From a virus (lineage: Duplodnaviria > Caudoviricetes), in IMG/VR virus record IMGVR_UViG_3300036785_000842, positions 1-56,526 of that record: DNA of 56,526 nt; one strand, written 5' to 3'. A program made the position numbers and the translations under genes. Shown here piece by piece: positions 43,658 to 56,526 of this stretch; the stretch's first letter is position 1; each line of letters begins with the position of its first letter. The notes under the pieces are model-generated. The model was not told where the DNA came from, made no database searches, and worked only from the letters and a program-made list of their open reading frames with translations.

Positions 43658-44689
43658 CTAGTTAATCAGCACGCCCTGCAAAAACGCGTTCGACATAGTC
43701 ATGTTGCCGGCCCACCCGACCAGTTTGACCATTGCGTCCTGATTGACGGTAAACCGGTCAGGATTGAGCGGGACCATGTTGCGGTCGCGGTGCGGTCTCA
43801 GGAAGATGTAATCTGTATTGAGAAAGTACATATGATTACTTGGAGCGCCACTCAAGGTTGCCCAGGTGATGCCGCCGCCGATCGTCGTCCCGGTGCCGGC
43901 CGCGACCCCCTGGAAGCCACCATCGAACACCACGTCGGCATCCATGAATTTGAGGCTCTGGAACCCGGCCACCCCCTCGTTCGGGTTGGTGATCCGCTGG
44001 ATCGCCTGCAGGCTCTCCCAATAGAATGTGAAATACGCGTTATCCGCGATCATAAGATCCGGCCTATCGGTGCCGCGTACCTGGTTTAACCACTGCCGGT
44101 TCATCATGGTCTGCATCGTTGCCGTACCGGGTGTAAGACCCGCCGCAGCAAAGGAGCCCACATAGGCCCGCCAGAACGGCCACAGCCCGCGGTCGATGCC
44201 GCCGACCACGCCGGCGGTCTCGACATCGGCGACGAGCAATTGCAGACCGCCGATCTGCTTGCCGCCGTCCAACGTGCCATTGCCGTAGCAGTCGCCCGAG
44301 ATGCCGTTGGTCATCGTCCGCTCGGCATTGCCGATGCGGCTTTCCAACAGATCGATCATGCGCTCGACGCCGCTGTTCTGCAGCTCTTCGAGACCGCTGA
44401 TCGAGACCGCGACCGCGGCCTGCGCCCAGGGATATTGCGCCGCAGTGAAGACATCGGACGGCGAAATATTCAATATGTCGTAACCCGAATATCTCTTGTA
44501 AGTCCCGTTTTCTGAGTACTCCAATTCCTGGACGATCGCCTGCCCGCCGTCGACCGGCTTGATCTTGTTGCGCTGGCTGAGCTTGGCGAGGATCGCGTTG
44601 TTCTTGGTGACGTTGTCGGCGAGCTTGCGACTTCTATTGAACAGGGTAGTCGTCGTAATTTCGCCCCAGTTCGGATTTGGTGAAGGCAT
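43658..44689 (-). CDS. major capsid protein
   Basis: 343 aa; LADNVTKNNAIL, YSGYD, SISGLEEL.NSG, GGIDR, YFLNTDYI; follows the scaffold. Confidence 0.9.
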   Translation of the reverse strand: MPSPNPNWGEITTTTLFNRSRKLADNVTKNNAILAKLSQRNKIKPVDGGQAIVQELEYSENGTYKRYSGYDILNISPSDVFTAAQYPWAQAAVAVSISGLEELQNSGVERMIDLLESRIGNAERTMTNGISGDCYGNGTLDGGKQIGGLQLLVADVETAGVVGGIDRGLWPFWRAYVGSFAAAGLTPGTATMQTMMNRQWLNQVRGTDRPDLMIADNAYFTFYWESLQAIQRITNPNEGVAGFQSLKFMDADVVFDGGFQGVAAGTGTTIGGGITWATLSGAPSNHMYFLNTDYIFLRPHRDRNMVPLNPDRFTVNQDAMVKLVGWAGNMTMSNAFLQGVLIN

Positions 44690-46395: not shown

Positions 46396-46570
46396 CGGAT
46401 CTCCCCGTGTTGGTGACCTCGTCGGCGCCGCCGACCGCCCCCTCGCAGCACGAAGCCTGTCCACTGCCCCCGCAGGCCGGACACGGGATGATCATCATCG
46501 CGACCATGTCGCGCGGCGTCGGGAGCCGCATCATGGCTCTGCCGCTACCGCCGCATTCAGCGCAGCGCAT
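46307..46570 (-). CDS. DnaJ-type zinc-finger small protein
   Basis: CAECGGSG...CPACGGSG..SCCEG; 3' end overlaps the next gene. Confidence 0.6.
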   Translation of the reverse strand: MRCAECGGSGRAMMRLPTPRDMVAMMIIPCPACGGSGQASCCEGAVGGADEVTNTGRSDENRRHEALGPREEERGGDLRDPVSSQRR

Positions 46571-46953
46571 CAGCGCCCACCGATGACGCGATCGATCTGC
46601 GGGCCCTCGTAGCCAGCACCGCGCAACACACCCTCGGCCTCGGCGCGGCGCTCGCCGGGATCGCGGTCGAGCTGGCGTTTGATATCCTGGGCGATCTCGC
46701 CGGCTGCCGGCTCGACCAGCTTGCGCGGCGCCATGATCGTCGAGGCCTCGTTGCCGACCTCGGTCAGGTCATAGCGCCGCAGATGCTCGCGGTGCTGGGT
46801 GCGCCCGGTGATCAGCTCGCCGGTGCGCATCGAGCGGTAAGGTGCCAAGTCGGTCTGCACCGTCGGCGCCGGCAGATCCGAGCGCGCCGCCGATATCGCC
46901 GGCGGCTCCCACGGCACGAGCTCGCCATTGCGCATGACATAGCGCCGTCGCAT
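46570..46953 (-). CDS. conserved phage protein
   Basis: DLAPYRSM.TG..I.GR.QHREHLRR....EVGNE; SD GGGGAG. Confidence 0.75.
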   Translation of the reverse strand: MRRRYVMRNGELVPWEPPAISAARSDLPAPTVQTDLAPYRSMRTGELITGRTQHREHLRRYDLTEVGNEASTIMAPRKLVEPAAGEIAQDIKRQLDRDPGERRAEAEGVLRGAGYEGPQIDRVIGGR

Positions 46954-47068
46954 GCTTAAGCTCCCCGTTAGGGCGAACGTCGCGGAGGGGTGAGCCGCCA
47001 CTGGAGCCCCGAGGGTGTCGGGCGTCCCCCTTGGCCTGGCGATCAGGTCAGCCCGGCATCCTCGCCGG

Positions 47069-47302
47069 CTAGACCCCCAAGAGCCGTGCCTGTGCGGGCG
47101 GCATGCCGACCGCACACAACATGTCCATCGGTGTGCTTTTCCCGGAACCCGGTGTATCGGAGCCGAGCAATTTGGCCAGCGCTGCCGGGATGCCAACATG
47201 CATCAGCTGCATCATCGGCGCCCCGTTCGCCCCGTCGCTGCCGAACAGCCGCGCCGCCGCCGCCGGCATGCCGACCGCGACGAGGTCCCGCATTACCGCC
47301 AT
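47069..47302 (-). CDS. small protein of three VG(M/I)PxAxA(R/K)L(L/F)G repeats
   Basis: SD AGGAG; internal triplication. Confidence 0.65.
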   Translation of the reverse strand: MAVMRDLVAVGMPAAAARLFGSDGANGAPMMQLMHVGIPAALAKLLGSDTPGSGKSTPMDMLCAVGMPPAQARLLGV

Positions 47303-47310
47303 CGAACTTC

Positions 47311-47332
47311 TCCTGAGCGATTGTCGAAGGGC
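47311..47332 (-). repeat. REP-like element family A (GCCCTTCGACAA(TC)GCTCAGG); other copies 48047-48067 (same orientation) and 48655-48674 (inverted)
   Basis: Direct sequence match between copies. Confidence 0.8.
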
Positions 47333-47336
47333 TCGA

Positions 47337-48305
47337 TTACACCAGGCCGCCGATATCGCGCGACAAGAGGTGCGAGGTGCGCGCCTGTTCCAGCGCCGCG
47401 CGCTGCTGGATCTCCTGACCCTGCTGCTCGATCTCGGCCATATGCAGCATGCCTTCCTGCTGCAGTTTCTTGGCGTCGCCCTGGGCCTCTATGTAGGCCT
47501 TCATCAACTGCACGGCGTTGGCCTGTTGCTGCGCCTGGACCTTGGCTTGATCGATCTGCTGATCGCCTTGCGCGGTGCGCGCCTCGGTCACGATCTCCAT
47601 CGGCGATTTGGTGTTGCCCCGCTGCTGCTGCTGCGGGTTTGGCGTCGGCGGCGATTGCGCGAGCGTCCTGAAAGCCTGCTCGAACATCGGTTCGAGCCCG
47701 CGCGCGGCCGGGAACGCCCGCACCCCGAACATCACCAGGGCCATCGCCAGGGGTGCGACCGCCGGGTTCTGCTGCACTTCGGGGATGATCATCTGCAGCA
47801 TCGGCATGATCGCCTGCAGAAACTCGGTGCGGGCAGCCTTTTCGGCCTGTTCGTCCGGAGCGATCGTCGAATCGGCCTCGATGTCGACCTTGTAGCCGGT
47901 CTGCACATCGTGCCGGACCATGTGGCAGGCGCCGAGAAACTGGGTTCGCCGGCGCGTGTTTTCGGCATCCCAGGCGGCTTTTTGCGCTCGCCATTGGGCA
48001 AAGGCCGGGTTCGGCATCATCCCCGGCGGCACCATACCGAGCGGCCCCTGAGCGATTGTCGAAGGGCCCCCCGGCGCCGGCATCCCGCCCGGTCCCGGCA
48101 GCCCACCGCCGGGACCTCGGGCAGGGAGACCGGGTCCCGGCGGTGGGAGACCGGGTCCCGGCGGTGGCAGACCGGGCCGTCCCACCACAGAGGGCCCGGT
48201 CACTCCCGGCCCGGCAGGCATCCCACCGCCGCCCAAAAGCGGCCCCCCTGGTGGCATCGCCCCACCGCCCGGAAATCCGACGACGTTGCTACGCTGTTCG
48301 GACAT
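47337..48305 (-). CDS. portal protein, C-terminal part (crown/barrel-like)
   Basis: Gly/Pro linker, then GYKVDIEADSTIAPDEQAEKAARTEFL...FGVRAFPAAR.LE and a Gln-rich coiled coil; own SD GAGAGGA. Confidence 0.75.
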   Translation of the reverse strand: MSEQRSNVVGFPGGGAMPPGGPLLGGGGMPAGPGVTGPSVVGRPGLPPPGPGLPPPGPGLPARGPGGGLPGPGGMPAPGGPSTIAQGPLGMVPPGMMPNPAFAQWRAQKAAWDAENTRRRTQFLGACHMVRHDVQTGYKVDIEADSTIAPDEQAEKAARTEFLQAIMPMLQMIIPEVQQNPAVAPLAMALVMFGVRAFPAARGLEPMFEQAFRTLAQSPPTPNPQQQQRGNTKSPMEIVTEARTAQGDQQIDQAKVQAQQQANAVQLMKAYIEAQGDAKKLQQEGMLHMAEIEQQGQEIQQRAALEQARTSHLLSRDIGGLV

Positions 48306-48322
48306 GGCTAATCCTCTCTGCC

Positions 48323-48607
48323 ATGGCCTTACCTCCTCCGATCCCATTGCGCCCCGCCGACCGCCCCGAGACCTGGGCGGAATATCAGCACCGGCGCCGG
48401 ATCCTCGCGCTGTGGCGTTCGATCGGCGATTTCGTGGTCAAGGGTCACTTCGCCAGCTTTGCCGACCTCATCCTGCTGGCACCCTACCGCCAGCCGATGC
48501 TGCCGCCGCGGCCGTTCGTGCCGTTCACCACGCTATTGGGCGGCGGGATCGTGCCGGGATCGCCTCAGGGCGAGCCGATCACGCTGCCGTGGTCCCCCGG
48601 AGAGTGA
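48323..48607 (+). CDS. small antisense protein ending in a TerS-like motif
   Basis: GC3-rich codons; PGSPQGEPITLPWS vs PGSPEGEPVTLPWS in 3055..3588; no obvious SD. Confidence 0.55.
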   Translation: MALPPPIPLRPADRPETWAEYQHRRRILALWRSIGDFVVKGHFASFADLILLAPYRQPMLPPRPFVPFTTLLGGGIVPGSPQGEPITLPWSPGE

Positions 48608-48687
48608 ATCGTTCGGCAGAGTGTAACTTTTTGCGCTCTCGTTTGCGGTGGGCGGCCCTTCGACAAGCTCAGGAGGCCGGCGGCGAT

Positions 48688-51489
48688 CTAGCGTCCGGGC
48701 ATAAAAAATGCCGGCGGCTCGCCGGCAAATGGATCGTGATCGACAGGAATGAGGTTGGGCGGCGGCTGCGCGGCCTGCGCCGGGTTGGTCAATGCTCCGT
48801 AGCCGGCGCCGAGAAGACCGGCGCCGGCCAGACCGGCGAGCGGCCTTAGTTGCCGCCCCCGCGCGGCGGGAGGGGTCTGCTCGTAGCGCTCGACGCGGGG
48901 TTTGAACTGGTCGATCCAGGCTTGGGTGGCGATCCGCTGCTGCTCGGCGATGTCGCGGACTTTTTGCCGCGCGTCCTCGAAAGCACCAGCTCGCTCGCCG
49001 GCGCTCCAACGTTGCGCTCGAACTCCTCCGGGTCTCCCGACATCATCCTGACCGGCATTGCGCTGACCTTCCCAAAAATCGTTGATGTGGGTGTCGTAAT
49101 TCTCGATGGCGTTTTGGCTCGGATGCTCAACGTAATATGACTGATACGCCCGCGGGTAAACTTGGATATTCCGCCCCGGCTGGTCAAATGCGCCGATCGC
49201 CGCAGCCTGCACCTGATCGCCCGACGGCGGCAGGACACCTTGATCGGTAAACGCCGGATGAACATCGACGAGGATGCCGTTGGGGCGACGCGTCGCGCTG
49301 ACCTCGCCACCGTGCCCGATCAATCGCTGGAATTGCTGCACTTGCGCGGTCGTGGTCGGGACCGCTCCCGGACCTGTCTCGGGGACGAACACCGAATAGG
49401 TTCGCAATCGGCCGCCGGCGTCCGCCGTCAGCGGCATCGTCTCAAAATGCGAGGCCGGCGCTGCCTCCTGGCCAAAACCTTCGCCGAGTGCGGAGAGCAC
49501 CGGATGGATCTGCTCGGGGGTCAAGCTGATCCGGTCGGAGCCCGCCTGCGCCCACATCGGGATGCGCAAATTTGGTGAGATGTCGCCCTGATAGGTGCCC
49601 CAGCCATTGTTGTCGACCCGGCTGACCGCGGCCCCCTTCCGGCCGATGACCGGTGCCACCAATTGCGAGACCACCGATTTCCCGCCGCCGGTCGTCACCG
49701 CATCCATCGCATCGCGCTGCAGCCGTTCCATCTTGTAGCGCGCGGTGTTGGCCCAGGGTGGCGCATCGGGACCGGCAGGCGGCAGGCGGCTTAAGAGGTC
49801 GGTGGCCTCCCGGCCCTCGGGCGTCATCTTTGTCGCGGTCTCGATCGTCGCCGTCGGCGTGGCGAGGTATTGCGCGCGCGTGCCGCTCATCAAATTCGGC
49901 ACATCGGGGTGCCCCAGCACCTCGGGGCTGAACAGCCCCTTGCTGGTGTCGACCCCGGCCGCCTCGAGCTGAGGCTTGATGTGGTTGTCCATCACATCGG
50001 CGTAATCGTCGCTGACCCCGATCTTGGTCGGGTCTTTCGTGCCGCGGTAATGGGTCCAGGCCGGCGCCTGGATCTGCCAGCTCTCAAACGGGTTTTCGGT
50101 GCCGGCCGCGACCCCGGGCCGCGCGGCGTTCTCGGCATCGCGAAAATTCTGGGTGAATTGCGAGGCGAGCGCATAGAGGTCGGGGCGCTTGGCCAGCTCG
50201 TCGGGATCCATGCCGAGGACCTCGCCATGCTGGCGGTCGTTGACCGAGATCGGCGGCTTGTCGTCGGCACCGGCGATGTGCAGAAACGTGCCGGTGTAAT
50301 TGGCGGTCTTGGGCGCCTCCATGCCGGTGGTCAACGCCATGCGCACCGTTCCGGGCTGTATCAGATCGGTCGAGATCGGCTGACCTTGCTGGTGCTCGGC
50401 CAGCACCCCGACGGTGCGCTGCAGGTTCTGCAGTGGTTCAGCGCTAGGCGAGGTCGCCGCGGTCACATTGAGCGCGTCGCGCATGTCCTCGGGGTGTTGG
50501 TCGAGCCCTTCGCTCTGAAACTTGCGCGCGCCGTTTTCGTACCAGTAACGCATCTTTTGCGGCTGGCTCAGCGCGTCGTTCCAGAATTTTGGCGTGTTCG
50601 GACCGACTTGCGGATTGTCCGCGAGGTATTTGTCGAGCTTCTCAGCCTGCTCCGGGCTCCACGAGCGGACCGTCTCGACCGCATCGTCCCAGGCTTTCTG
50701 CAGATCGGCCGCACTCGACTTCATGCCGCCGATCGACTGCGACATGTCGAGATCGGTCCAATCGGCGCCGCCGACCACCGGCACCGTGCCGACCCCCTCC
50801 TTATAGGGTCCGATCCGGCGGTTTTCGACCGGCAGGACCGTGTCGAGATCGCTGTTGCGGATCAATCCGCTGCGCGGCGGTGTGCCGGGTGCTGCAGCAG
50901 CGGGCCCCGCTGCCGCCTCGCCGGGCGGTATCGTCGACACCAACGCCGGCGCACCAATCGGCTCGGGCGGTTGGTTGTGACCAATCCCCGCCGGCGGACC
51001 CAGTTCAGCCAGCGGATCACCCGGCAGCTCACCCGGCAGCGGTACGCGACCACCGCGGCCAGGCCCGCGGCCGATGCCGGCGCCGACCGAGCCGCTCGGC
51101 GCTGCACCGGCGACATGCATCAGACCAAAGCTGGCGAGCTCCTGCGGCGTCATCTCGGGCAACCCGGTCTCGGTATTGCGGCCGAGCAGCCGGTTTTCCT
51201 GCTCGAGATACCCCGGGATACTGAGACTGCCGTAAATGCCGCGCGCAATGTCGGCCACATCGCCGCCGATCGCCTCTCCGGCACCACGCAGAACCCGGCC
51301 GGTTGCGCTGACCGCCGGCGCGATCGCCCTCGACAAATTGGCCATGCCAACTGCCTCGGGATCGCCCCAAAAACCGGTCGGATCGGGATCGCGCGGCAAA
51401 GGCGGCGACCGCATCGGCGAGGGCTGGTTGGGATCGCCAAATCCGCCATCGCCAAAATCCGGGTCGTAGTCGACCGGGATCAACGCCAT
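48688..51489 (-). CDS. large putative virion/injected protein with DUF7178-like (HhH-GPD-like) domain
   Basis: YWYE...AATSP...N...PKTANY...ISVNDRQH...QIQAPAW pattern; LIPVD(Y/H)DP motif at both termini. Confidence 0.55.
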   Translation of the reverse strand: MALIPVDYDPDFGDGGFGDPNQPSPMRSPPLPRDPDPTGFWGDPEAVGMANLSRAIAPAVSATGRVLRGAGEAIGGDVADIARGIYGSLSIPGYLEQENRLLGRNTETGLPEMTPQELASFGLMHVAGAAPSGSVGAGIGRGPGRGGRVPLPGELPGDPLAELGPPAGIGHNQPPEPIGAPALVSTIPPGEAAAGPAAAAPGTPPRSGLIRNSDLDTVLPVENRRIGPYKEGVGTVPVVGGADWTDLDMSQSIGGMKSSAADLQKAWDDAVETVRSWSPEQAEKLDKYLADNPQVGPNTPKFWNDALSQPQKMRYWYENGARKFQSEGLDQHPEDMRDALNVTAATSPSAEPLQNLQRTVGVLAEHQQGQPISTDLIQPGTVRMALTTGMEAPKTANYTGTFLHIAGADDKPPISVNDRQHGEVLGMDPDELAKRPDLYALASQFTQNFRDAENAARPGVAAGTENPFESWQIQAPAWTHYRGTKDPTKIGVSDDYADVMDNHIKPQLEAAGVDTSKGLFSPEVLGHPDVPNLMSGTRAQYLATPTATIETATKMTPEGREATDLLSRLPPAGPDAPPWANTARYKMERLQRDAMDAVTTGGGKSVVSQLVAPVIGRKGAAVSRVDNNGWGTYQGDISPNLRIPMWAQAGSDRISLTPEQIHPVLSALGEGFGQEAAPASHFETMPLTADAGGRLRTYSVFVPETGPGAVPTTTAQVQQFQRLIGHGGEVSATRRPNGILVDVHPAFTDQGVLPPSGDQVQAAAIGAFDQPGRNIQVYPRAYQSYYVEHPSQNAIENYDTHINDFWEGQRNAGQDDVGRPGGVRAQRWSAGERAGAFEDARQKVRDIAEQQRIATQAWIDQFKPRVERYEQTPPAARGRQLRPLAGLAGAGLLGAGYGALTNPAQAAQPPPNLIPVDHDPFAGEPPAFFMPGR

Positions 51490-51493
51490 CGGT

Positions 51494-53335
51494 TCAGGCC
51501 ACCATCAGGTATTTGCCGGGACGACGCGGATCGGGGACGTAGTGCCTGCCGTCGCGCGCCAGCCGGGCTCCCGGCGGCAACGGCGGACCGGGCGGCGCCA
51601 GCATGGGCGCCCGGACGGCACCGGGAGGCACCTGGGAAATCATCGGGCCCGGCCGTCCGGGAACCCCGACGGCCGGCGCCGGTAGACCGGCGCCGGGTGG
51701 TGCGCCGGCGCCGCCGGGCATCCCTGGGCCGCCCGTCGACAGAATACCTGGACGAGACGGCGGCGGTCCCGCTGCCGGTGCCGGGGCCGGCGCAGGGAGA
51801 GCCGGTCCGCCGCCCATCGCCGGACCCGGTGCGGGGGTCGGCGCCGGGATAAACATCGGCGGCGGCGGCGGCAGCGCCGGCAGCGGTTGCGGCAACCCGG
51901 ACATCCGCGACAATGTCTCCGGGTCGAAATGGCGCGCCATGACGGCCCCGCGCAATCGCATCAGATCGCGGGCAAAGCGCCCGACGTCCTTTTGCGCGCG
52001 GGTGATCCGGCGGGTGGCGAATTGGGTCTTGAGCTGCTGGGCGCCGAGCGTCTCGATCGGGTTGGTCTCGCCGCGCAGAATGTCGGCGATGCCGGTCGTC
52101 TGATAGATGATCTGCAGGAGGCGCTCGCGGGCGTCGTAGAGCTGAATCATCACCCGGGCGATCTGCTCGACCGGCAACCACTGGATCAGGTTCTGCAATC
52201 CCCCCTTGTCGCCGGCGAACCCGGCCCAATCCTCGACCGGGATCAGGCGGTTTTCGCTGCTGTCGTCGACCAGCTGCTGCAACACCATCTTTTCGGATCC
52301 GGCATAGACGCCGGCGACCTTGAGCGCGCGGGTCAATTTGTCGATCCGGCTGGTGATTACATCGAGCTCCTGGGCCTGATCTTGATATTCGATGTAATCG
52401 GCGACCGCTACCCGCTTGTTGTTTGTCGTCGTCGCTCTGAGGCAAGGCGGCGACGGGAAAAAGTCAGGTAATTCGAGCGGATCGTCCTGGGTGTCCAGCG
52501 GGCCCTCGGAATAGTTCTTGGCGACCCACACCGCCTGGTGCTTTTTCTTGTCCCAGATCTCCCAGACGGTGGCTTTTTTGAACATGTCGGCGAGCGGGCC
52601 CTGGTTGGCCTCGCTGGCCACCGCATGCACCCCCGAGGGGGTGTAATCGAGCCCGACCTTTTTGCCGAGCTCATTGCCAAAGCGCTCGCAGAGCTCGTCG
52701 CGCGTCATAAACGAGCGGTAGGCCTTCCACCAGATCTCGCCCTCGGTGCGCGCCGGGGTTTCCCGGTAATCCTCCCAAAAAACATAGCGGATCGGGGCGC
52801 GCTCGTTGGCGACCGGCTCAAACGTCGATGGATTGCCGTCCTCGTCGGGCTCGCCGTCCGGGTCCTCCTCGGGCGGCCCGAATTCGGGCTCGTAGAACAC
52901 CCGCGCGACCCCGCGGCCGGGCAACAGCCGGTCCTCGACCACCTGCTGCATGACCGCGTCGAACTCCTCGATGTCCTGCTCGTAATCGAGGGCGGCTTCG
53001 AGGATCTGCGCGCCCATCGCCGCCACCGGGTCGTTCTCGTCCTTGTGGCGGCGCGCGACATCGGGTTCCGGGGTGCGCCCGTAGAGCACCGGCTTTAGGG
53101 TTTCGATATTTGACCACAAAATGTTGTATTTTGCGGTACGCGCCTCGTTGGCGTCGCGCTCGTCGCGGTAGCGGTCGACGATGCGCCGGCCGCGCTTGAT
53201 AAAATCCTCGTCCTCGCGCTCGGCCAGGCTCAGCTGCGAGTTCCAGAACTGCCAGACCGCATTGGGTGTCGTGCCGAGGTCCTTGCGCTCCTCGATCGTG
53301 CCGACAACCGCGGTCGCCCCCTGCAGATCGGCCAC
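51494..53335 (-). CDS. portal protein, N-terminal part
   Basis: YNILWSNIETLKP.LY...P.P.V.RR, DRLLPGRG, WEIWDK, IYQTTGIADILRG...ETLGAQQLK; position after terL. Confidence 0.88.
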   Translation of the reverse strand: MADLQGATAVVGTIEERKDLGTTPNAVWQFWNSQLSLAEREDEDFIKRGRRIVDRYRDERDANEARTAKYNILWSNIETLKPVLYGRTPEPDVARRHKDENDPVAAMGAQILEAALDYEQDIEEFDAVMQQVVEDRLLPGRGVARVFYEPEFGPPEEDPDGEPDEDGNPSTFEPVANERAPIRYVFWEDYRETPARTEGEIWWKAYRSFMTRDELCERFGNELGKKVGLDYTPSGVHAVASEANQGPLADMFKKATVWEIWDKKKHQAVWVAKNYSEGPLDTQDDPLELPDFFPSPPCLRATTTNNKRVAVADYIEYQDQAQELDVITSRIDKLTRALKVAGVYAGSEKMVLQQLVDDSSENRLIPVEDWAGFAGDKGGLQNLIQWLPVEQIARVMIQLYDARERLLQIIYQTTGIADILRGETNPIETLGAQQLKTQFATRRITRAQKDVGRFARDLMRLRGAVMARHFDPETLSRMSGLPQPLPALPPPPPMFIPAPTPAPGPAMGGGPALPAPAPAPAAGPPPSRPGILSTGGPGMPGGAGAPPGAGLPAPAVGVPGRPGPMISQVPPGAVRAPMLAPPGPPLPPGARLARDGRHYVPDPRRPGKYLMVA

Positions 53336-53733
53336 TAGGCGGCCTCCGGGGGCGGCTCGAGGGTCGCCTCGGTCTCGACGACGTGGAACTGATCGCCGTC
53401 ATTGACCCGGCGCCCCCGGCCGCCGCGAAAGTGGATCGTGCGCAATGCCACCGGGTGCCCCTGCCACTGGTCCCACACCCGCAGGCCCCCATCGCTCTGG
53501 CGCTCATAAACCGCGGCGTGCGAGCGGCCGTCGGTGTGGTTGCCATAGCGGCCGTTGGGCTCAAAGGTCGCGATCACCGTCCCGGCCGGCAATTCGATGC
53601 CACGCACCTTGATGCCGCACCGCCATTGCGAGGTAAGCGGCAGGCCGCCGGCCGCCTGGACAAAGCGCACGCAATGCCCGTTGGCGACGACCTCGCCGGC
53701 CCAGCGCTCGGGACGATCGACGACAAAACTCAT
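53335..53733 (-). CDS. BPSL0067-like (Tae2-type, NlpC/P60-related) peptidoglycan amidase; endolysin candidate
   Basis: GHCVRFVQ, TSQWR.G, GTVIATF..NGRY.N, HAAVY, VWDQW. Confidence 0.8.
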   Translation of the reverse strand: MSFVVDRPERWAGEVVANGHCVRFVQAAGGLPLTSQWRCGIKVRGIELPAGTVIATFEPNGRYGNHTDGRSHAAVYERQSDGGLRVWDQWQGHPVALRTIHFRGGRGRRVNDGDQFHVVETEATLEPPPEAA

Positions 53734-53762
53734 CCCCGACCCCCTAACCGCCGCCGCCGTAT

Positions 53763-54473
53763 CTAAAATATTGCACCTTCTGGCGGCGCCACACCCTTAG
53801 CGCGGCAAACCCCGCACAACTCGCGAAAGGATTTTTTCCCGATATTCGGGATATGCAACAGCTCGGCGCTGTGCATTCTCGCCGCCGCGCGCAACGTGGT
53901 GATCCCCTCGCCGCACAAGGCGTTTTTTAGCCGAGCGCTGACGTCGAGGCCGGCGATTGGCCAATCCGCTTCTGCCGGTTCCGCCGGTTCGGCTTGGCTT
54001 TGCGCACTCTTCGGTTGAGCGATTGCGCGCGCCAACATTCCGCGCAGCCGCTCATTCTCCTTGGCCACGGCGCGCCAAACGGCCCCGGCGTTCTCCAGCT
54101 GCTGTTCCAATCCTCGTGTGTGCTCTTGCAAGCGTTGTTGATACGACCGGGCATAGACGCGGCTCTCCTCGACAGCCTGCTTGAGAGCCTCGTTTTCCGC
54201 CATCAGACGCCGAACCGTGTCTTGCAGCTCGATGATTAGGTGATTGACGTTGGGCCCGACGCCGCCCCCATAACGATCCCATTGGGCAAACGACGGCGGC
54301 GCCGGAACCGGCGCGTGGCCCTTGGCCACCAGGCTCTTCAAATCAAACCAGCTGAGCCCAGCCTCGCGCAGCATCGCCTGCGCCAAATCACGAGCATTCA
54401 ACGCCTCGCCCTCAGCGGCGGAGCCCATCATGCCGATGATTTTGGCGAGTTTTGACCAATCGAGCCCCGTCAT
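53763..54473 (-). CDS. protein with DUF2786-like N-terminus, coiled coil and RNA polymerase alpha-CTD-like domain
   Basis: KLAKIIGMMGS..EGEALNA; C-terminal PIAGLDVSARLKNAL...GITTL......ELLHIPNIGKKSFREL. Confidence 0.75.
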   Translation of the reverse strand: MTGLDWSKLAKIIGMMGSAAEGEALNARDLAQAMLREAGLSWFDLKSLVAKGHAPVPAPPSFAQWDRYGGGVGPNVNHLIIELQDTVRRLMAENEALKQAVEESRVYARSYQQRLQEHTRGLEQQLENAGAVWRAVAKENERLRGMLARAIAQPKSAQSQAEPAEPAEADWPIAGLDVSARLKNALCGEGITTLRAAARMHSAELLHIPNIGKKSFRELCGVCRAKGVAPPEGAIF

Positions 54474-54483
54474 CACCAGAAGT

Positions 54484-56526
54484 TTAGATGCGCTCCGGGC
54501 GGCCGTTGCCGATAAAGCGCCCGCCGCGGTAGTAGCGGGCATCGAGCTTGTAGAGCTCGTCGATCGTCATCCCGCCGATACCGCGCTGCTCGGGCTCGAC
54601 GGGCTTGGGTTTCGAGCCGGGGACCATCTCGTCGAGCATCCGCCCGATCAGGCTGAGGGTGTCGACCTGATCGTCATATTTCCCGGCCGGAAAGCGCAGC
54701 AATTCATCCATCAGGGTCGCCGCCCAGGGCGCGCGCTTGGGCAGATAGACCTTGCCCATCGCCACCCGCCCGCGGATCGCCTGCGCCCGCACCGCCTTGT
54801 CGGCAGCCGAGCTGAACTGCTTTCTATGGGCATAGACCTTGCGCTCCAGCTGGCGCTTGGTCAGAAACGGCCCGACCCCCTTCTCGATCTGCCCCGATTC
54901 CTCGGCCCAGGTCAGGGTTTTCCACAGCTCCATCAGATCGATCACCGCCTCGACCCACTCGTTCGAGGCGACCTGCTTGCGCCACAGGTCGAGCAGATAG
55001 AGATCGTCGTTCGGATCGAGCCCGCCGACGATGTGCACGGTGTAATCGCCCATGTTGGCGCGCACCGCATAATCCGAGGCGCCATAGGTGCGCAGCTGAT
55101 CGCGCTGTGGCGCTGTGTCGTACCACCTCAGCCAGTCGTTTTTGAAATAATCGCCCGACTCGGGCATTGGCCGCTGCTGGTAGAGCGCCGACCAGTTGCG
55201 CGCGTCACGCTGGGCATTTTCAAACATTTCGGTTGTGAACCACTCGGGCCACAAGCGCTCACCGGGCACCCGCCCGAGGGCATCGCCGTCCTCGGCGATG
55301 GCCGGCAGGCTGACGACCTCCCACTGCTCGCCGCCGATCTTGGCGTCCTCGAGCAAGCGCCCGGCGAGGTCGTCCTCGTGCCACCGGGTGCCGATGTAGA
55401 GGAGCCCGGCCTCGGGCACGAGCCGCGTCCAGAAATCGGCCTTGTACCACTCCCACACATGCTGCCGGATCGTCGCGCTATCGGCCTCGGCCTTGCCTTT
55501 GACCGGGTCGTCGATGATCCCCAGATGAGCCCGGCGGCCGGTGACGCTGGCATCGACCCCGACCGCGAAGTACTCGCCGCCGCGGGCGGTTTCCCAGCGC
55601 CCGGCCGCCCCGCTGTCGCCCGACAATCCAAATCCGAATGTCCCGCGGAAGATCGGCGAGCCGACGATGTTGCGCACCCGGCGGCCAAACCGCTCGGCGA
55701 GCTCTTTGGAGTGACTGGCGGCGATCACCGACTGGGTCGGGTGATTGCCGATGTACCAGCTGGGGAACAACACGCTGCCGTAGGTCGATTTTGCCGACCC
55801 CGGCGGCAAAAAGAACATCAGCCGCTTGATTTCCCCCTTGGCCAAGGCCTCGAGCTTGGCCAGCAGCAGCTGATGATGGCGCGCCGGGCTGATATCGGGC
55901 ATCGCCAACGCCACCCAGCGCCCGAGATCCTGGCGGGCGGCCGCCCGATCGGCCTCGGCCTGCGCCTCGGTCGCGGTTTGCCCCAATTCGGCGTCGATAT
56001 TGACCCGGATCCAGTCGGGATCGCGCTCGCTGGCAAAGGCGGCGTAGGAAAACCCCTTTTTGGCCAATGCCGGCAGGTTTTCGGCCTCGGCCGAGCGTCC
56101 GCTCGGCTGGCGAAACAGCACCAGGTCGCCCGGCTCCTCGGGCCGGCGCACCAGCCAATGACCCGGCGGCGGCATCCGCGAGGAACACACGACCCCGGAC
56201 CACACCGCCCCGCCGGCGAGCGGGGTCGGGAAGGTGCCGGCGATCCGCTGCGCGTCCTCGAGCACCGTCTCGCTCAAATTGCGCGCGTCGTCGAGCCACA
56301 CGCCGGTCGCCGCGGCCGCGGCAAAGCGCCGGCGGTCTTGGGCATCGTCCATCCCGAGAAAATCGAGCTCCAGCGAGCGCTTGACGCCATCCTCCAGCCG
56401 GTAGCTCAGCGCAAAATGGCGGCCCTTCTCGTCATATTCGCCAAGGTCGAGCCAGGTCTTGATCGCCGGGATCGTGTAGCGTTCGAGCTCGCGCCGGATC
56501 GGCGCCACGACGAGCCATCGCCAGGC
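54484..56526 (-). CDS. terL: terminase large subunit (open at window end; extra N-terminal ATPase-like domain)
   Basis: LPPGSAKST (Walker A), GIIDDPVK (Walker B), GTRWHEDDLAG, YQQRP, nuclease ASDYA...DDQVD. Confidence 0.93.
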   Translation of the reverse strand, partial: AWRWLVVAPIRRELERYTIPAIKTWLDLGEYDEKGRHFALSYRLEDGVKRSLELDFLGMDDAQDRRRFAAAAATGVWLDDARNLSETVLEDAQRIAGTFPTPLAGGAVWSGVVCSSRMPPPGHWLVRRPEEPGDLVLFRQPSGRSAEAENLPALAKKGFSYAAFASERDPDWIRVNIDAELGQTATEAQAEADRAAARQDLGRWVALAMPDISPARHHQLLLAKLEALAKGEIKRLMFFLPPGSAKSTYGSVLFPSWYIGNHPTQSVIAASHSKELAERFGRRVRNIVGSPIFRGTFGFGLSGDSGAAGRWETARGGEYFAVGVDASVTGRRAHLGIIDDPVKGKAEADSATIRQHVWEWYKADFWTRLVPEAGLLYIGTRWHEDDLAGRLLEDAKIGGEQWEVVSLPAIAEDGDALGRVPGERLWPEWFTTEMFENAQRDARNWSALYQQRPMPESGDYFKNDWLRWYDTAPQRDQLRTYGASDYAVRANMGDYTVHIVGGLDPNDDLYLLDLWRKQVASNEWVEAVIDLMELWKTLTWAEESGQIEKGVGPFLTKRQLERKVYAHRKQFSSAADKAVRAQAIRGRVAMGKVYLPKRAPWAATLMDELLRFPAGKYDDQVDTLSLIGRMLDEMVPGSKPKPVEPEQRGIGGMTIDELYKLDARYYRGGRFIGNGRPERI

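Follow-up and report, generated by a model that had tools for sequence, protein, structure and literature searches.

We analysed the portal gene of a tailed virus (Duplodnaviria; Caudoviricetes) in a stretch of 56,526 nucleotides (nt), hereafter the window, which is a 56.5-kb IMG/VR viral contig assembled from a metagenome (IMGVR_UViG_3300036785_000842, positions 1 to 56,526; completeness estimate 94%). The portal of this Mx8-like soil podophage, and of a clade of its relatives, very probably consists of two polypeptides, which are encoded by separate genes that we call portN and portC. Between them the window carries the gene of a third protein, cargo A. Our favoured explanation as a whole, a two-chain portal whose break has become an insertion site for a cassette with a tagged cargo protein, we regard as probable. 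That the cargo is indeed tagged, associated with the portal and packaged is a part that we hold more tentatively, at slightly less than an even chance. The features of the locus are listed below, with lengths in amino acids (aa).

51494..53335, minus strand: portN, the first portal gene, 613 aa, with clip, stem, wing and long helix, then a linker and a tail peptide
51890..53335, minus strand: portN body, aa 1-482, homologous to one-piece portals (PHROG 12082 and Mx8 alignments)
51572..51889, minus strand: Pro/Gly/Ala-rich linker of portN, aa 483-588, whose length varies among relatives through in-frame insertions and deletions (indels)
51497..51571, minus strand: tail peptide of portN, aa 589-613, ending ...GARLARDGRHYVPDPRRPGKYLMVA, which belongs to the inserted cassette
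48688..51489, minus strand: cargo A gene, 933 aa, with its ATG 4 nt past the portN stop
51457..51483, minus strand: N-terminal motif of cargo A, LIPVDYDPD, aa 3-11
48850..50877, minus strand: folded core of cargo A, aa 205-880, predicted mostly with high confidence, with homology to a module found inside giant polyvalent proteins
48727..48753, minus strand: C-terminal motif of cargo A, LIPVDHDPF, aa 913-921
48699..48727, minus strand: terminator-like hairpin (8 pairs, 7 of them G-C) and T run within the final cargo codons
48325..48607, plus strand: small antisense open reading frame (ORF) of 94 aa that separates cargo and portC, optional among relatives
47337..48305, minus strand: portC, the second portal gene, 322 aa
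48261-48305, minus strand: N-terminal peptide of portC, MSEQRSNVVGFPGG
48012-48260, minus strand: Pro/Gly linker of portC
47340-48011, minus strand: helix, strand, crown and barrel of portC

The initial annotation of this region, made from the letters and their ORFs, had placed these three minus-strand ORFs correctly, together with the portN ending in HFDPETLSRM plus a Pro/Gly tract and the portC start at 48305. The frame of portC extends over 47337..48347, which gives a form of 336 aa. The conserved start is the one at 48305 (MSEQRSNVVGF..., 322 aa); the same Met is found in relatives, and locus L008 has a stop two codons upstream of it. Here and below, relatives are referred to by locus numbers of this kind.

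The homology of the two halves to portals can be stated from the family profile PHROG 12082 (portal, 715 profile positions). Residues 21-482 of portN match positions 14-474 of the profile (E value 3e-142), and residues 142-324 of the 336-aa form of portC match positions 527-712 (E 1.2e-21). On the one-piece portal of Mx8 (663 aa), portN aligns with residues 8-466 and portC with residues 495-649. The profile is covered only by portN and portC jointly, and the coverage is consecutive, non-overlapping and far beyond chance, as had been proposed at the outset for an alignment of both ORFs to one-piece portals. The genes also stand where a portal is expected, after the large terminase and before a scaffold-like gene and the major capsid protein. 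Searches of solved structures with the sequence profiles of portN and portC returned no portal match.

In order to see whether the split recurs, we scanned IMG/VR with portC (1 locus), with the cargo (3 loci), with a portC alignment (36 loci) and with a tail-peptide alignment (34 loci). After removal of 18 rows with an identical portN segment, the distinct set of portN-type sequences numbered 46. The first ORF ends in the same loop in 33 of these 46: both halves are visible in 24, and in the other 9 portN stops at this position too, bearing the same tail, and the contig ends before portC. The remaining 13 are one-piece portals (L010-L012, L041-L046, L048 and L049, plus Mx8 and Mx9). Wherever sequence downstream of portN is visible, portC is next in order and co-oriented (24/24 distinct loci). 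A scan of genome contigs gave three relatives, all with one-piece portals, and a scan of metagenome contigs gave one locus with portC only. In other cultured relatives the portal is a single chain of 687-783 aa. We also searched 5.8 billion protein clusters for portC-like proteins (limited to 177-564 aa, E<=1e-5) and found 180, of which the best 120 are 177-321 aa long; the sources include JGI, ENA, Logan and NCBI, with a metagenome-assembled genome (MAG) of Stellaceae among them. Searching 50,697 phage records with portC and cargo (tblastn, E<=1e-5) gave no match, and even the cultured Bradyrhizobium phage described below was too distant at that threshold. As a side observation, L009 and L061 are one 58.6-kb IMG/VR contig with portC at its start and with portN and a cargo B gene at its end, which indicates a circular permutation cut within the interval between cargo and portC.

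The window is a metagenome-assembled contig, so an assembly or sequencing artefact had to be considered, and the initial annotation had itself raised misassembly as a concern. Both junctions are bridged by Logan contigs of run X1: one of 3515 nt spans 47958-51472 with 0 differences, and one of 644 nt spans 51443-52086 with 2 differences. The window may itself have been assembled from this run, the best holder of its reads, in which case the bridging tests the assembler and not the sample. None of the runs listed as holding the stretch is an RNA run. The order portN, insert, portC is however repeated in other IMG/VR datasets, on at least 10 further contigs, and in-frame indels and synonymous changes between relatives point to two maintained ORFs. 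We therefore consider the chance of an artefact in the window to be negligible.

The junctions between the halves in relatives without an insert are informative about how the two ORFs are expressed. In L024, L036, L038, L039 and L040, the stop of portN and the start of portC overlap in ATGA. The cultured Bradyrhizobium phage ppBjS10J-1 (L003) has a GTGA overlap, and in L017 a GTG start of portC lies 2 nt past the portN stop. In L020 and L026 an 85-aa ORF is chained between the halves by two ATGA overlaps, and in L018 the halves are separated by a gap of 200 nt. The halves of insert-free relatives lie in different frames, and since their ORFs overlap there is no intervening sequence for splicing at these loci. 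The ATGA and GTGA overlaps suggest termination-reinitiation coupling, by which the two chains would be made in matched amounts. For ppBjS10J-1 (OP596615.1, L003 7372-7700), the record annotates hypothetical proteins of 522 aa and 173 aa, the second from a later ATG; homology to portC starts about 190 nt upstream of that second annotated start, at the GTG that overlaps the stop of the first ORF.

These junctions also bear on the alternative that a one-piece portal is restored by an intron, by an intein or trans-splicing, by a programmed frameshift or by ribosomal bypass. What could be said for it is that portC lies in the -1 frame of portN in the ATGA/GTGA relatives, such that a -1 shift near the stop would fuse the two, and that most portC proteins start with Met-Ser. 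The frame relation is not constant, though: it is -1 in the ATGA loci and +1 in L017, and L018 and L020 have gaps of 200-250 nt. A conserved frameshift is therefore disfavoured, and no slippery heptamer was seen by eye at the L024 junction. In the window the halves are 3.2 kb apart with a complete conserved gene between them. The claim of the initial annotation that no intein or intron features are present held up in both scans made. Pfam (E<=0.01) finds no intein, Hint or homing-endonuclease domain in portN, cargo A or portC, and an Rfam scan of 46500-54000 at E<=1 finds no intron, with three unrelated matches (E 0.64-0.78) all below the gathering score. An intein or split intein was rejected on the missing Hint domain and on junction residues that vary among relatives: portN ends in MVA, GVGS, GAPQ, RMPQ or GATP, and L024-type portC begins with MIGS, without a nucleophile at position 2. 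A group I or II intron was rejected on the missing covariance match and on the overlapping ORFs of insert-free relatives. Insertion of a free-standing homing endonuclease was rejected as well, as no Pfam, NCBIfam or PHROG family is found in the 933-aa cargo A. Altogether we find restoration of a single chain highly improbable.

We next consider where in the portal fold the break lies. An alignment was made of 11 one-piece portals and, from split forms, 7 portN and 6 portC sequences; on it the one-piece portal of L010 was folded with AlphaFold2 (mean predicted local distance difference test, pLDDT, 70.7; predicted template modelling score, pTM, 0.64). The model matches solved podophage portals, namely Pan3 (E 2.4e-11), SU10, Pa223, N4, T7 and P22, all with probability 1.00; the match to chain 9jg6_A of the P22 tail complex has E 2e-06. 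In sequence order it contains a long helix (434-473), a short helix (476-483) and a loop (488-507, pLDDT <50). After the loop come a helix (512-539) and a strand (540-544, with the conserved block G[YF][KR][IV]DIE), then the helices of the crown (554-619) and the barrel helix, which spans 80 aa (635-714). In the alignment the split site falls in the loop 488-507; the model is of L010, and the chains of the window were placed on it by alignment. The earlier proposal that the break lies in a flexible loop thus agrees with the low pLDDT at this place in the model of a one-piece relative. The same loop is already Pro/Ala/Gly-rich and variable in one-piece relatives, and reaches about 120 aa in L012. 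By this mapping, portN would provide the clip, stem, wing and long helix, and portC would provide a wing-packing helix and strand, the crown and the long barrel helix, with the break in a disordered Pro/Gly-rich loop between wing and crown that would be on the capsid-interior side. The initial annotation had called portC a crown/barrel gene. This term is slightly too narrow, in that portC also encodes the helix and beta-strand preceding the crown.

In order to assess whether both halves are maintained, we calculated the ratio of nonsynonymous to synonymous changes (dN/dS) by the Nei-Gojobori method (NG86) for the window against L007, L008 and L006 (dS 0.6-1.2). The values are as follows.

portN body: dN/dS 0.14-0.20
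portN linker: dN/dS 0.24-0.37
portN tail peptide: dN/dS 0.00-0.05, at dS 0.6-0.8
portC core: dN/dS 0.19-0.33
portC N-terminal 15 aa: dN/dS 0.04-0.25

The linkers of portN and portC differ in length between relatives, always in frame. Purifying selection together with these in-frame indels indicates that both portN and portC are maintained as coding sequences, and the tail peptide is the most constrained part of portN. The two-chain reading of the initial annotation is thereby supported, at the level of sequence comparison, by the split in 24 relatives, by the overlapping ORFs without an insert and by purifying selection.

A different possibility is that only portN acts as the portal and that portC is a dispensable remnant or has been repurposed, the crown and barrel being non-essential. 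The isolated barrel of P22 is weakly structured in solution and a P22 portal core that ends at residue 602 still forms rings, as reported in PMC5290284, and portC evolves somewhat faster than portN. On the other hand, portC is kept in all 24 distinct loci with visible sequence downstream of portN, is under purifying selection and overlaps the portN stop in insert-free relatives. It also holds more than the barrel, namely the helix mentioned above, the conserved strand GYK[IV]DIEADST and the crown helices, which rank with the most conserved blocks in the entire portal family. A portal made of portN only is accordingly very unlikely in our view.

In a maximum-likelihood tree of these 46 segments of portN, obtained by a quick search and rooted at the midpoint, a single clade (34 rows, support 99) takes in every split form but ppBjS10J-1. 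Cargo-bearing members are so spread over this tree that at least 7 changes are needed, which indicates that the cassette has often been gained and lost.

The boundaries of this cassette are clearest from a comparison of L024, which has no insert, with L030, which has one. Their flanks are 92-93% identical, and the two differ by one insertion of 1611 nt that sits right before the last 5 codons of portN. The insertion brings in GARLAPDGRHYVPDPQRPGKYLMVA with a stop, then an ORF of 71 aa, then a cargo ORF of 446 aa without its own stop. It follows from this site that the cargo takes over the old end of portN (AGVG-) and its ATGA overlap with portC. The cassette therefore gives the first portal half a tail peptide of 25 aa (...DGRHYVPDPRRPGKYLMVA), which is found in 7/7 aligned cargo-bearing portN sequences with the invariant core DGRHYVPDP.RPGK and has no counterpart in insert-free relatives, including L024. 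Target-site duplication was considered and rejected, as by eye the L030 boundaries show no clear direct repeat. The 71-aa ORF is basic and conserved between the tail stop and the cargo start in L027 (7897-8112) and L030 (2412-2627), and its start overlaps the portN stop.

The tail has the consensus APDGxHYVPDPxRPGKYLxV, and the cargo ORFs carry an end motif of their own, [LV][IV]PV[DE]HDP[FYW], which is present in 1-2 copies within the first 45 aa of all of them and usually again near the C-terminus. The window and 32 other contigs, 33 in all, encode a protein that ends in the tail. A motif-bearing ORF lies downstream on the same strand in 32 of the 33, and the last contig (L073) ends 148 nt past the tail. 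In 30 of the 33 it is the directly downstream ORF that bears the motif, no more than about 45 aa from one of its ends; the exceptions include L076, with the motif on a 79-aa ORF 1.6 kb downstream, and L080, with an internal motif. The motif is absent from all ORFs of at least 50 aa on both strands in 34 related tail-free loci (L003, L010-L013, L017-L026, L031-L049). The pairing is not confined to the Mx8-type portal. Whole P22-type portals (PF16510, E 1e-57 to 5e-98; PHROG 156) terminate in this tail in L074, L075, L076, L079 and L080, as do a protein of 1338 aa in L077 that matches a transglycosylase and an ORF in L066 that is at least 1272 aa long; ORFs with the motif lie downstream in L074, L075, L077, L078, L079 and L066. 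The N- and C-terminal motif copies of the window differ at synonymous sites, which points to selection on the peptide and not on the DNA, and for the same reason a DNA-level recombination site was ruled out as the cause of the repeated motif. We also co-folded the tail peptide with whole cargo A and obtained interface scores (ipSAE) of 0.07 and 0.10 against a mark of 0.32, which speaks neither for nor against binding. In L063 (8075-8257), a tail-bearing portN is followed by a 60-aa ORF with little beyond three copies of the cargo motif, which looks like a cassette stripped of its cargo body.

The cargo proteins fall in families that are unrelated or mosaic: A (window, L006), B (L007, L008, L027 and others), and C and D (L028, L030, L066). 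Families C and D have ART-PolyVal-like matches below the Pfam cut-off (E 1e-05 to 2e-06). Pfam, NCBIfam and PHROGs hold no family for cargo A and for cargo B only a sub-threshold match to DUF7178 (E 0.032), and a MuF/SPP1 gp7 head protein was rejected for both on the missing Pfam MuF match. A phmmer search of cargo A against 1.84 billion representatives gave 187 homologues at E<=1e-3, 118 of them at E<=1e-30. Residues ~210-870 match internal stretches of many proteins of 2,000-4,098 aa; of four such giant homologues scanned, three carry ART-PolyVal (E 3e-22), or LPD38 (E 2e-41) with a phage lysozyme domain, and InPase and LPD23 occur in other members of the cargo A family. Judged by this homology, the core of cargo A is a stand-alone copy of a polyvalent-protein module. 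The N-terminal arm of cargo A (window 50887-51489, aa 3-178) is 63% identical to the arms of cargo-B-like proteins in L053 and L056, which shows that the cargo genes are mosaic.

The AlphaFold2 model of cargo A, made on a 38-sequence alignment, has a mean pLDDT of 76.5 and a pTM of 0.74. The core 205-880 is mostly above 90, and aa 1-201 and 889-933 are below 50, such that disordered arms of 200 aa and 45 aa are predicted to flank the core with the motifs at the arm tips. A Foldseek comparison of this model with the PDB was empty at E<=0.001, and the cargo profile gave nothing meaningful against solved structures. With VIA-align, aa 206-496 are similar to HhH-GPD glycosylase-type folds (3n0u_A, Z 8.9 over 167 aa with a root-mean-square deviation of 3.4; 7ugk, Z 7.0; 3s6i, 6.6; 7rdt, 6.4; 8vx4, 6.2), all in a range that the tool warns can arise by chance. 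K394 and D418 are invariant in the 38 sequences and may correspond to the Lys/Asp pair of endonuclease III. A base-excision-like activity suggested by this model is a lead only.

Taken together, these observations lead us to the following mechanism for the favoured explanation. The two chains, originally coupled in their expression, would assemble in a 12+12 ring. The break in the loop would have been turned into an insertion site for a portable cassette, in which the last codons of portN are replaced by the 25-aa tail and a stop, together with a cargo gene. The tails, tethered flexibly inside the procapsid, and the terminal motifs of the cargo would act as matching address tags that hold the cargo at the portal during procapsid assembly, and the cargo would then be packaged and leave through the portal with the DNA, being injected. 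The tail would be translated first and the N-terminal motif of the cargo a few codons further on in the same message, an order that would favour assembly in cis. The suggestion of the initial annotation that the break serves as an attachment point is strengthened in so far as a conserved tail is inherited with the cargo gene and co-occurs with the cargo motifs; binding of tail to cargo is a further step that we infer.

A more far-reaching reading, possible but to our mind less likely than the packaging of a tagged cargo in itself, is that tail and motif form a portable two-part address system, by which soil phages with at least two portal families would attach interchangeable effectors to the portal, or else to another internal protein, so as to package and inject them. 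The split would then be kept as it gives a free C-terminus inside the capsid for the tag. A bolder version is that tail and cargo could be linked covalently, as both peptides have Asp-Pro bonds and the tail has an invariant Lys.

Several observations weigh against our explanation. The one-piece prophage portals L010 and L011, from MAGs of Alphaproteobacteria, are nested in the split clade beside a split subclade (support 100), which implies either several breaks of the loop or one break and then re-fusion; at an ATGA overlap a one-base change could be enough for re-fusion. ppBjS10J-1 could have a split portal or a one-base sequencing error (indel). Many database proteins of portC size are on short contigs of 1-2 kb and may be fragments. 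In the window, L006 and L007 a terminator-like hairpin lies between portN and portC; such hairpins at the cargo end are found in L006 and L007 besides the window, and not in the other 10 of 13 cassette ends examined. A gap of 380 nt with the antisense ORF also separates cargo from portC in the window, and given hairpin and gap, coupled and equimolar expression of portN and portC is not evident there. An antisense ORF precedes portC in the window, L008 and L009; the 94-aa ORF of the window has no counterpart in L006 and L007. Inserts unrelated to the cargo genes, without tail or motif, are found at the same site in L020, L031 and L035, which indicates that the site accepts genes possibly unconnected to the portal. 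The tail and the motifs are all at gene junctions, which is compatible with a translational role. The cassette also looks like an autonomous moron, an optional unit of phage genes that carries expression signals of its own.

Much of this can be put together in another explanation, in which the portal has two chains and the inserts are ordinary optional genes (morons) in a tolerant spot, with the tail and the motifs serving, for example, nascent-peptide control of translation where genes meet, processing or the binding of a host factor. The untagged genes at the same site (the 85-aa ORF of L020 and L026, two small ORFs in L031, and the insert of L035), the antisense ORFs between the halves of the window, L007 and L008, the hairpin that ends the cargo gene as it would an autonomous unit, and the location of tail and motifs at gene ends are all in its favour. 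It accounts less well for a tail with nearly no amino acid replacements which travels with the cargo as one insertion, and for the occurrence of this tail on two unrelated portal families and a transglycosylase-like protein with a motif-bearing ORF after it in nearly all contigs. Control of the junction as the sole function is countered by motifs that are kept where the next gene is distant: across the 380-nt gap in the window, in L007 with 645 nt between tail and cargo, and in L028 with the motif 60 aa before the stop. A folded core between disordered arms with motifs at their tips, as predicted for cargo A, is moreover the expected look of a tethered protein. We therefore regard the moron explanation as unlikely, yet as the chief rival where the cargo is concerned, and retain a two-chain portal with a tagged cargo cassette as the favoured one.

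Some further observations concern the inserts. The first ~36 aa of the antisense ORF (MALPPPIPLRP.DRPETW.EYQ...) are conserved in L008 and L009 and the C-terminal parts differ; a variant in run X2 skips 48365-48718 and so lacks the antisense ORF. Pfam, NCBIfam and PHROGs hold no family for the antisense ORFs. L031 (1438-2660) and L035 (7336-9538) belong to a subclade with another conserved portN ending (...RFGNGQ.WT..NGQP...) and inserts without PVDHDPF; the 401-aa ORF inserted in L035 is sugar aminotransferase-like by eye.

The remaining genes of the head module, all on the minus strand, follow the order terminase, 259-aa protein, 132-aa ORF, portN, cargo A, portC, two small ORFs, scaffold-like ORF and major capsid protein. 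Those outside the portal locus are listed below.

54484-56508, minus strand: large terminase (PF03237; PHROG 38)
53763-54542, minus strand: 259-aa protein between terminase and portal, with an RNA polymerase alpha-subunit C-terminal domain (PF03118, E 7e-11)
between the 259-aa gene and portN, minus strand: 132-aa ORF
between portC and the major capsid protein, minus strand: two small ORFs, then a 416-aa scaffold-like ORF
43658-44689, minus strand: major capsid protein (PHROG 9953)

The PF03118 domain is in an unusual place for an RNA polymerase alpha C-terminal domain, and the 259-aa protein may be a small terminase or a DNA-binding protein.

A clade with a two-chain portal would offer a natural experiment on how crown and barrel are attached to the wing, and on how far portal assembly and the packaging signal rely on a covalent link between them, and the cultured ppBjS10J-1 may serve as a test system for the split. 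A docking role for the pairing of tail and motif, if real, would be new in kind. A portal tag of about 25 aa and a cargo tag of 9 aa would then amount to transferable protein loading into phage heads, which would explain the swapping of effector genes between phages and would give a handle for packaging chosen proteins in capsids.

To our knowledge, portals have always been described as rings of one protein. In the library of papers that we searched there is no report of a phage portal gene in two parts and none that mentions ppBjS10J-1. The closest known systems are the one-piece Mx8-type portals (PHROG 12082) of Mx8, Mx9, the Brucella phage Tb group, Rhizobium phage RHph_I3_18, Ruegeria phage 45A6 and Stenotrophomonas phage BUCT555. 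These share with the window homology over both halves, the same neighbourhood of terminase, scaffold-like gene and major capsid protein, and the same order of structural elements. They are however single ORFs of 663-783 aa, whereas the portal of the window is two ORFs with long Pro/Gly extensions, conserved terminal peptides and genes between. The portal of P22 (gp1) has the same overall fold and long C-terminal barrel helix, judging from the L010 model, but is one chain. Lokareddy et al. (PMC5290284) describe its crown as flexibly connected to the wing and its barrel as reaching into the virion, with a hammer loop (456-505, at the surface and before the crown) disordered in mature virions, the crown at 525-600 and the barrel at 600-725. 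From its position in the order of the sequence, the split loop would be the counterpart of this hammer loop.

Effectors have been linked to portals before. Iyer et al. 2017 (PMC5512222) argue from gene context that phage polyvalent proteins are packaged and injected, and describe effector domains fused to MuF or portal domains; MuF toxins are treated by Jamet et al. 2017 (PMC5576092). The polyvalent and MuF-portal fusions as presented in PMC5512222 resemble the window in that the cargo core is a polyvalent module and the effector gene sits with the portal gene. They differ in that the effector of the window is separate and unfused, without a MuF match, and the link would be a pair of short peptides. 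We found no description of such a pair of portal tail and cargo motif. Short terminal peptides that address unrelated proteins into a protein shell are known from T4, where the internal proteins and Alt carry an N-terminal capsid targeting sequence that binds the scaffolding core and is removed by the prohead protease, and from encapsulins, where cargo-loading peptides bind the shell protein. The cargo of the window is, in contrast, tagged at both ends, and its partner is apparently a peptide borne by the portal or by some other internal protein. Inserted genes are also known to split essential phage genes, such as nrdA of Aeromonas phage Aeh1, where the insert is a homing endonuclease gene, and the topoisomerase of T4. 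As with the portal here, these are one chain in relatives and two genes in the phage concerned, whether or not another gene lies between, and their pieces work as a complex, as portN and portC would. The split portal differs from them in that no homing endonuclease domain is present, the inserts are diverse, and the split persists in many relatives that carry no insert.

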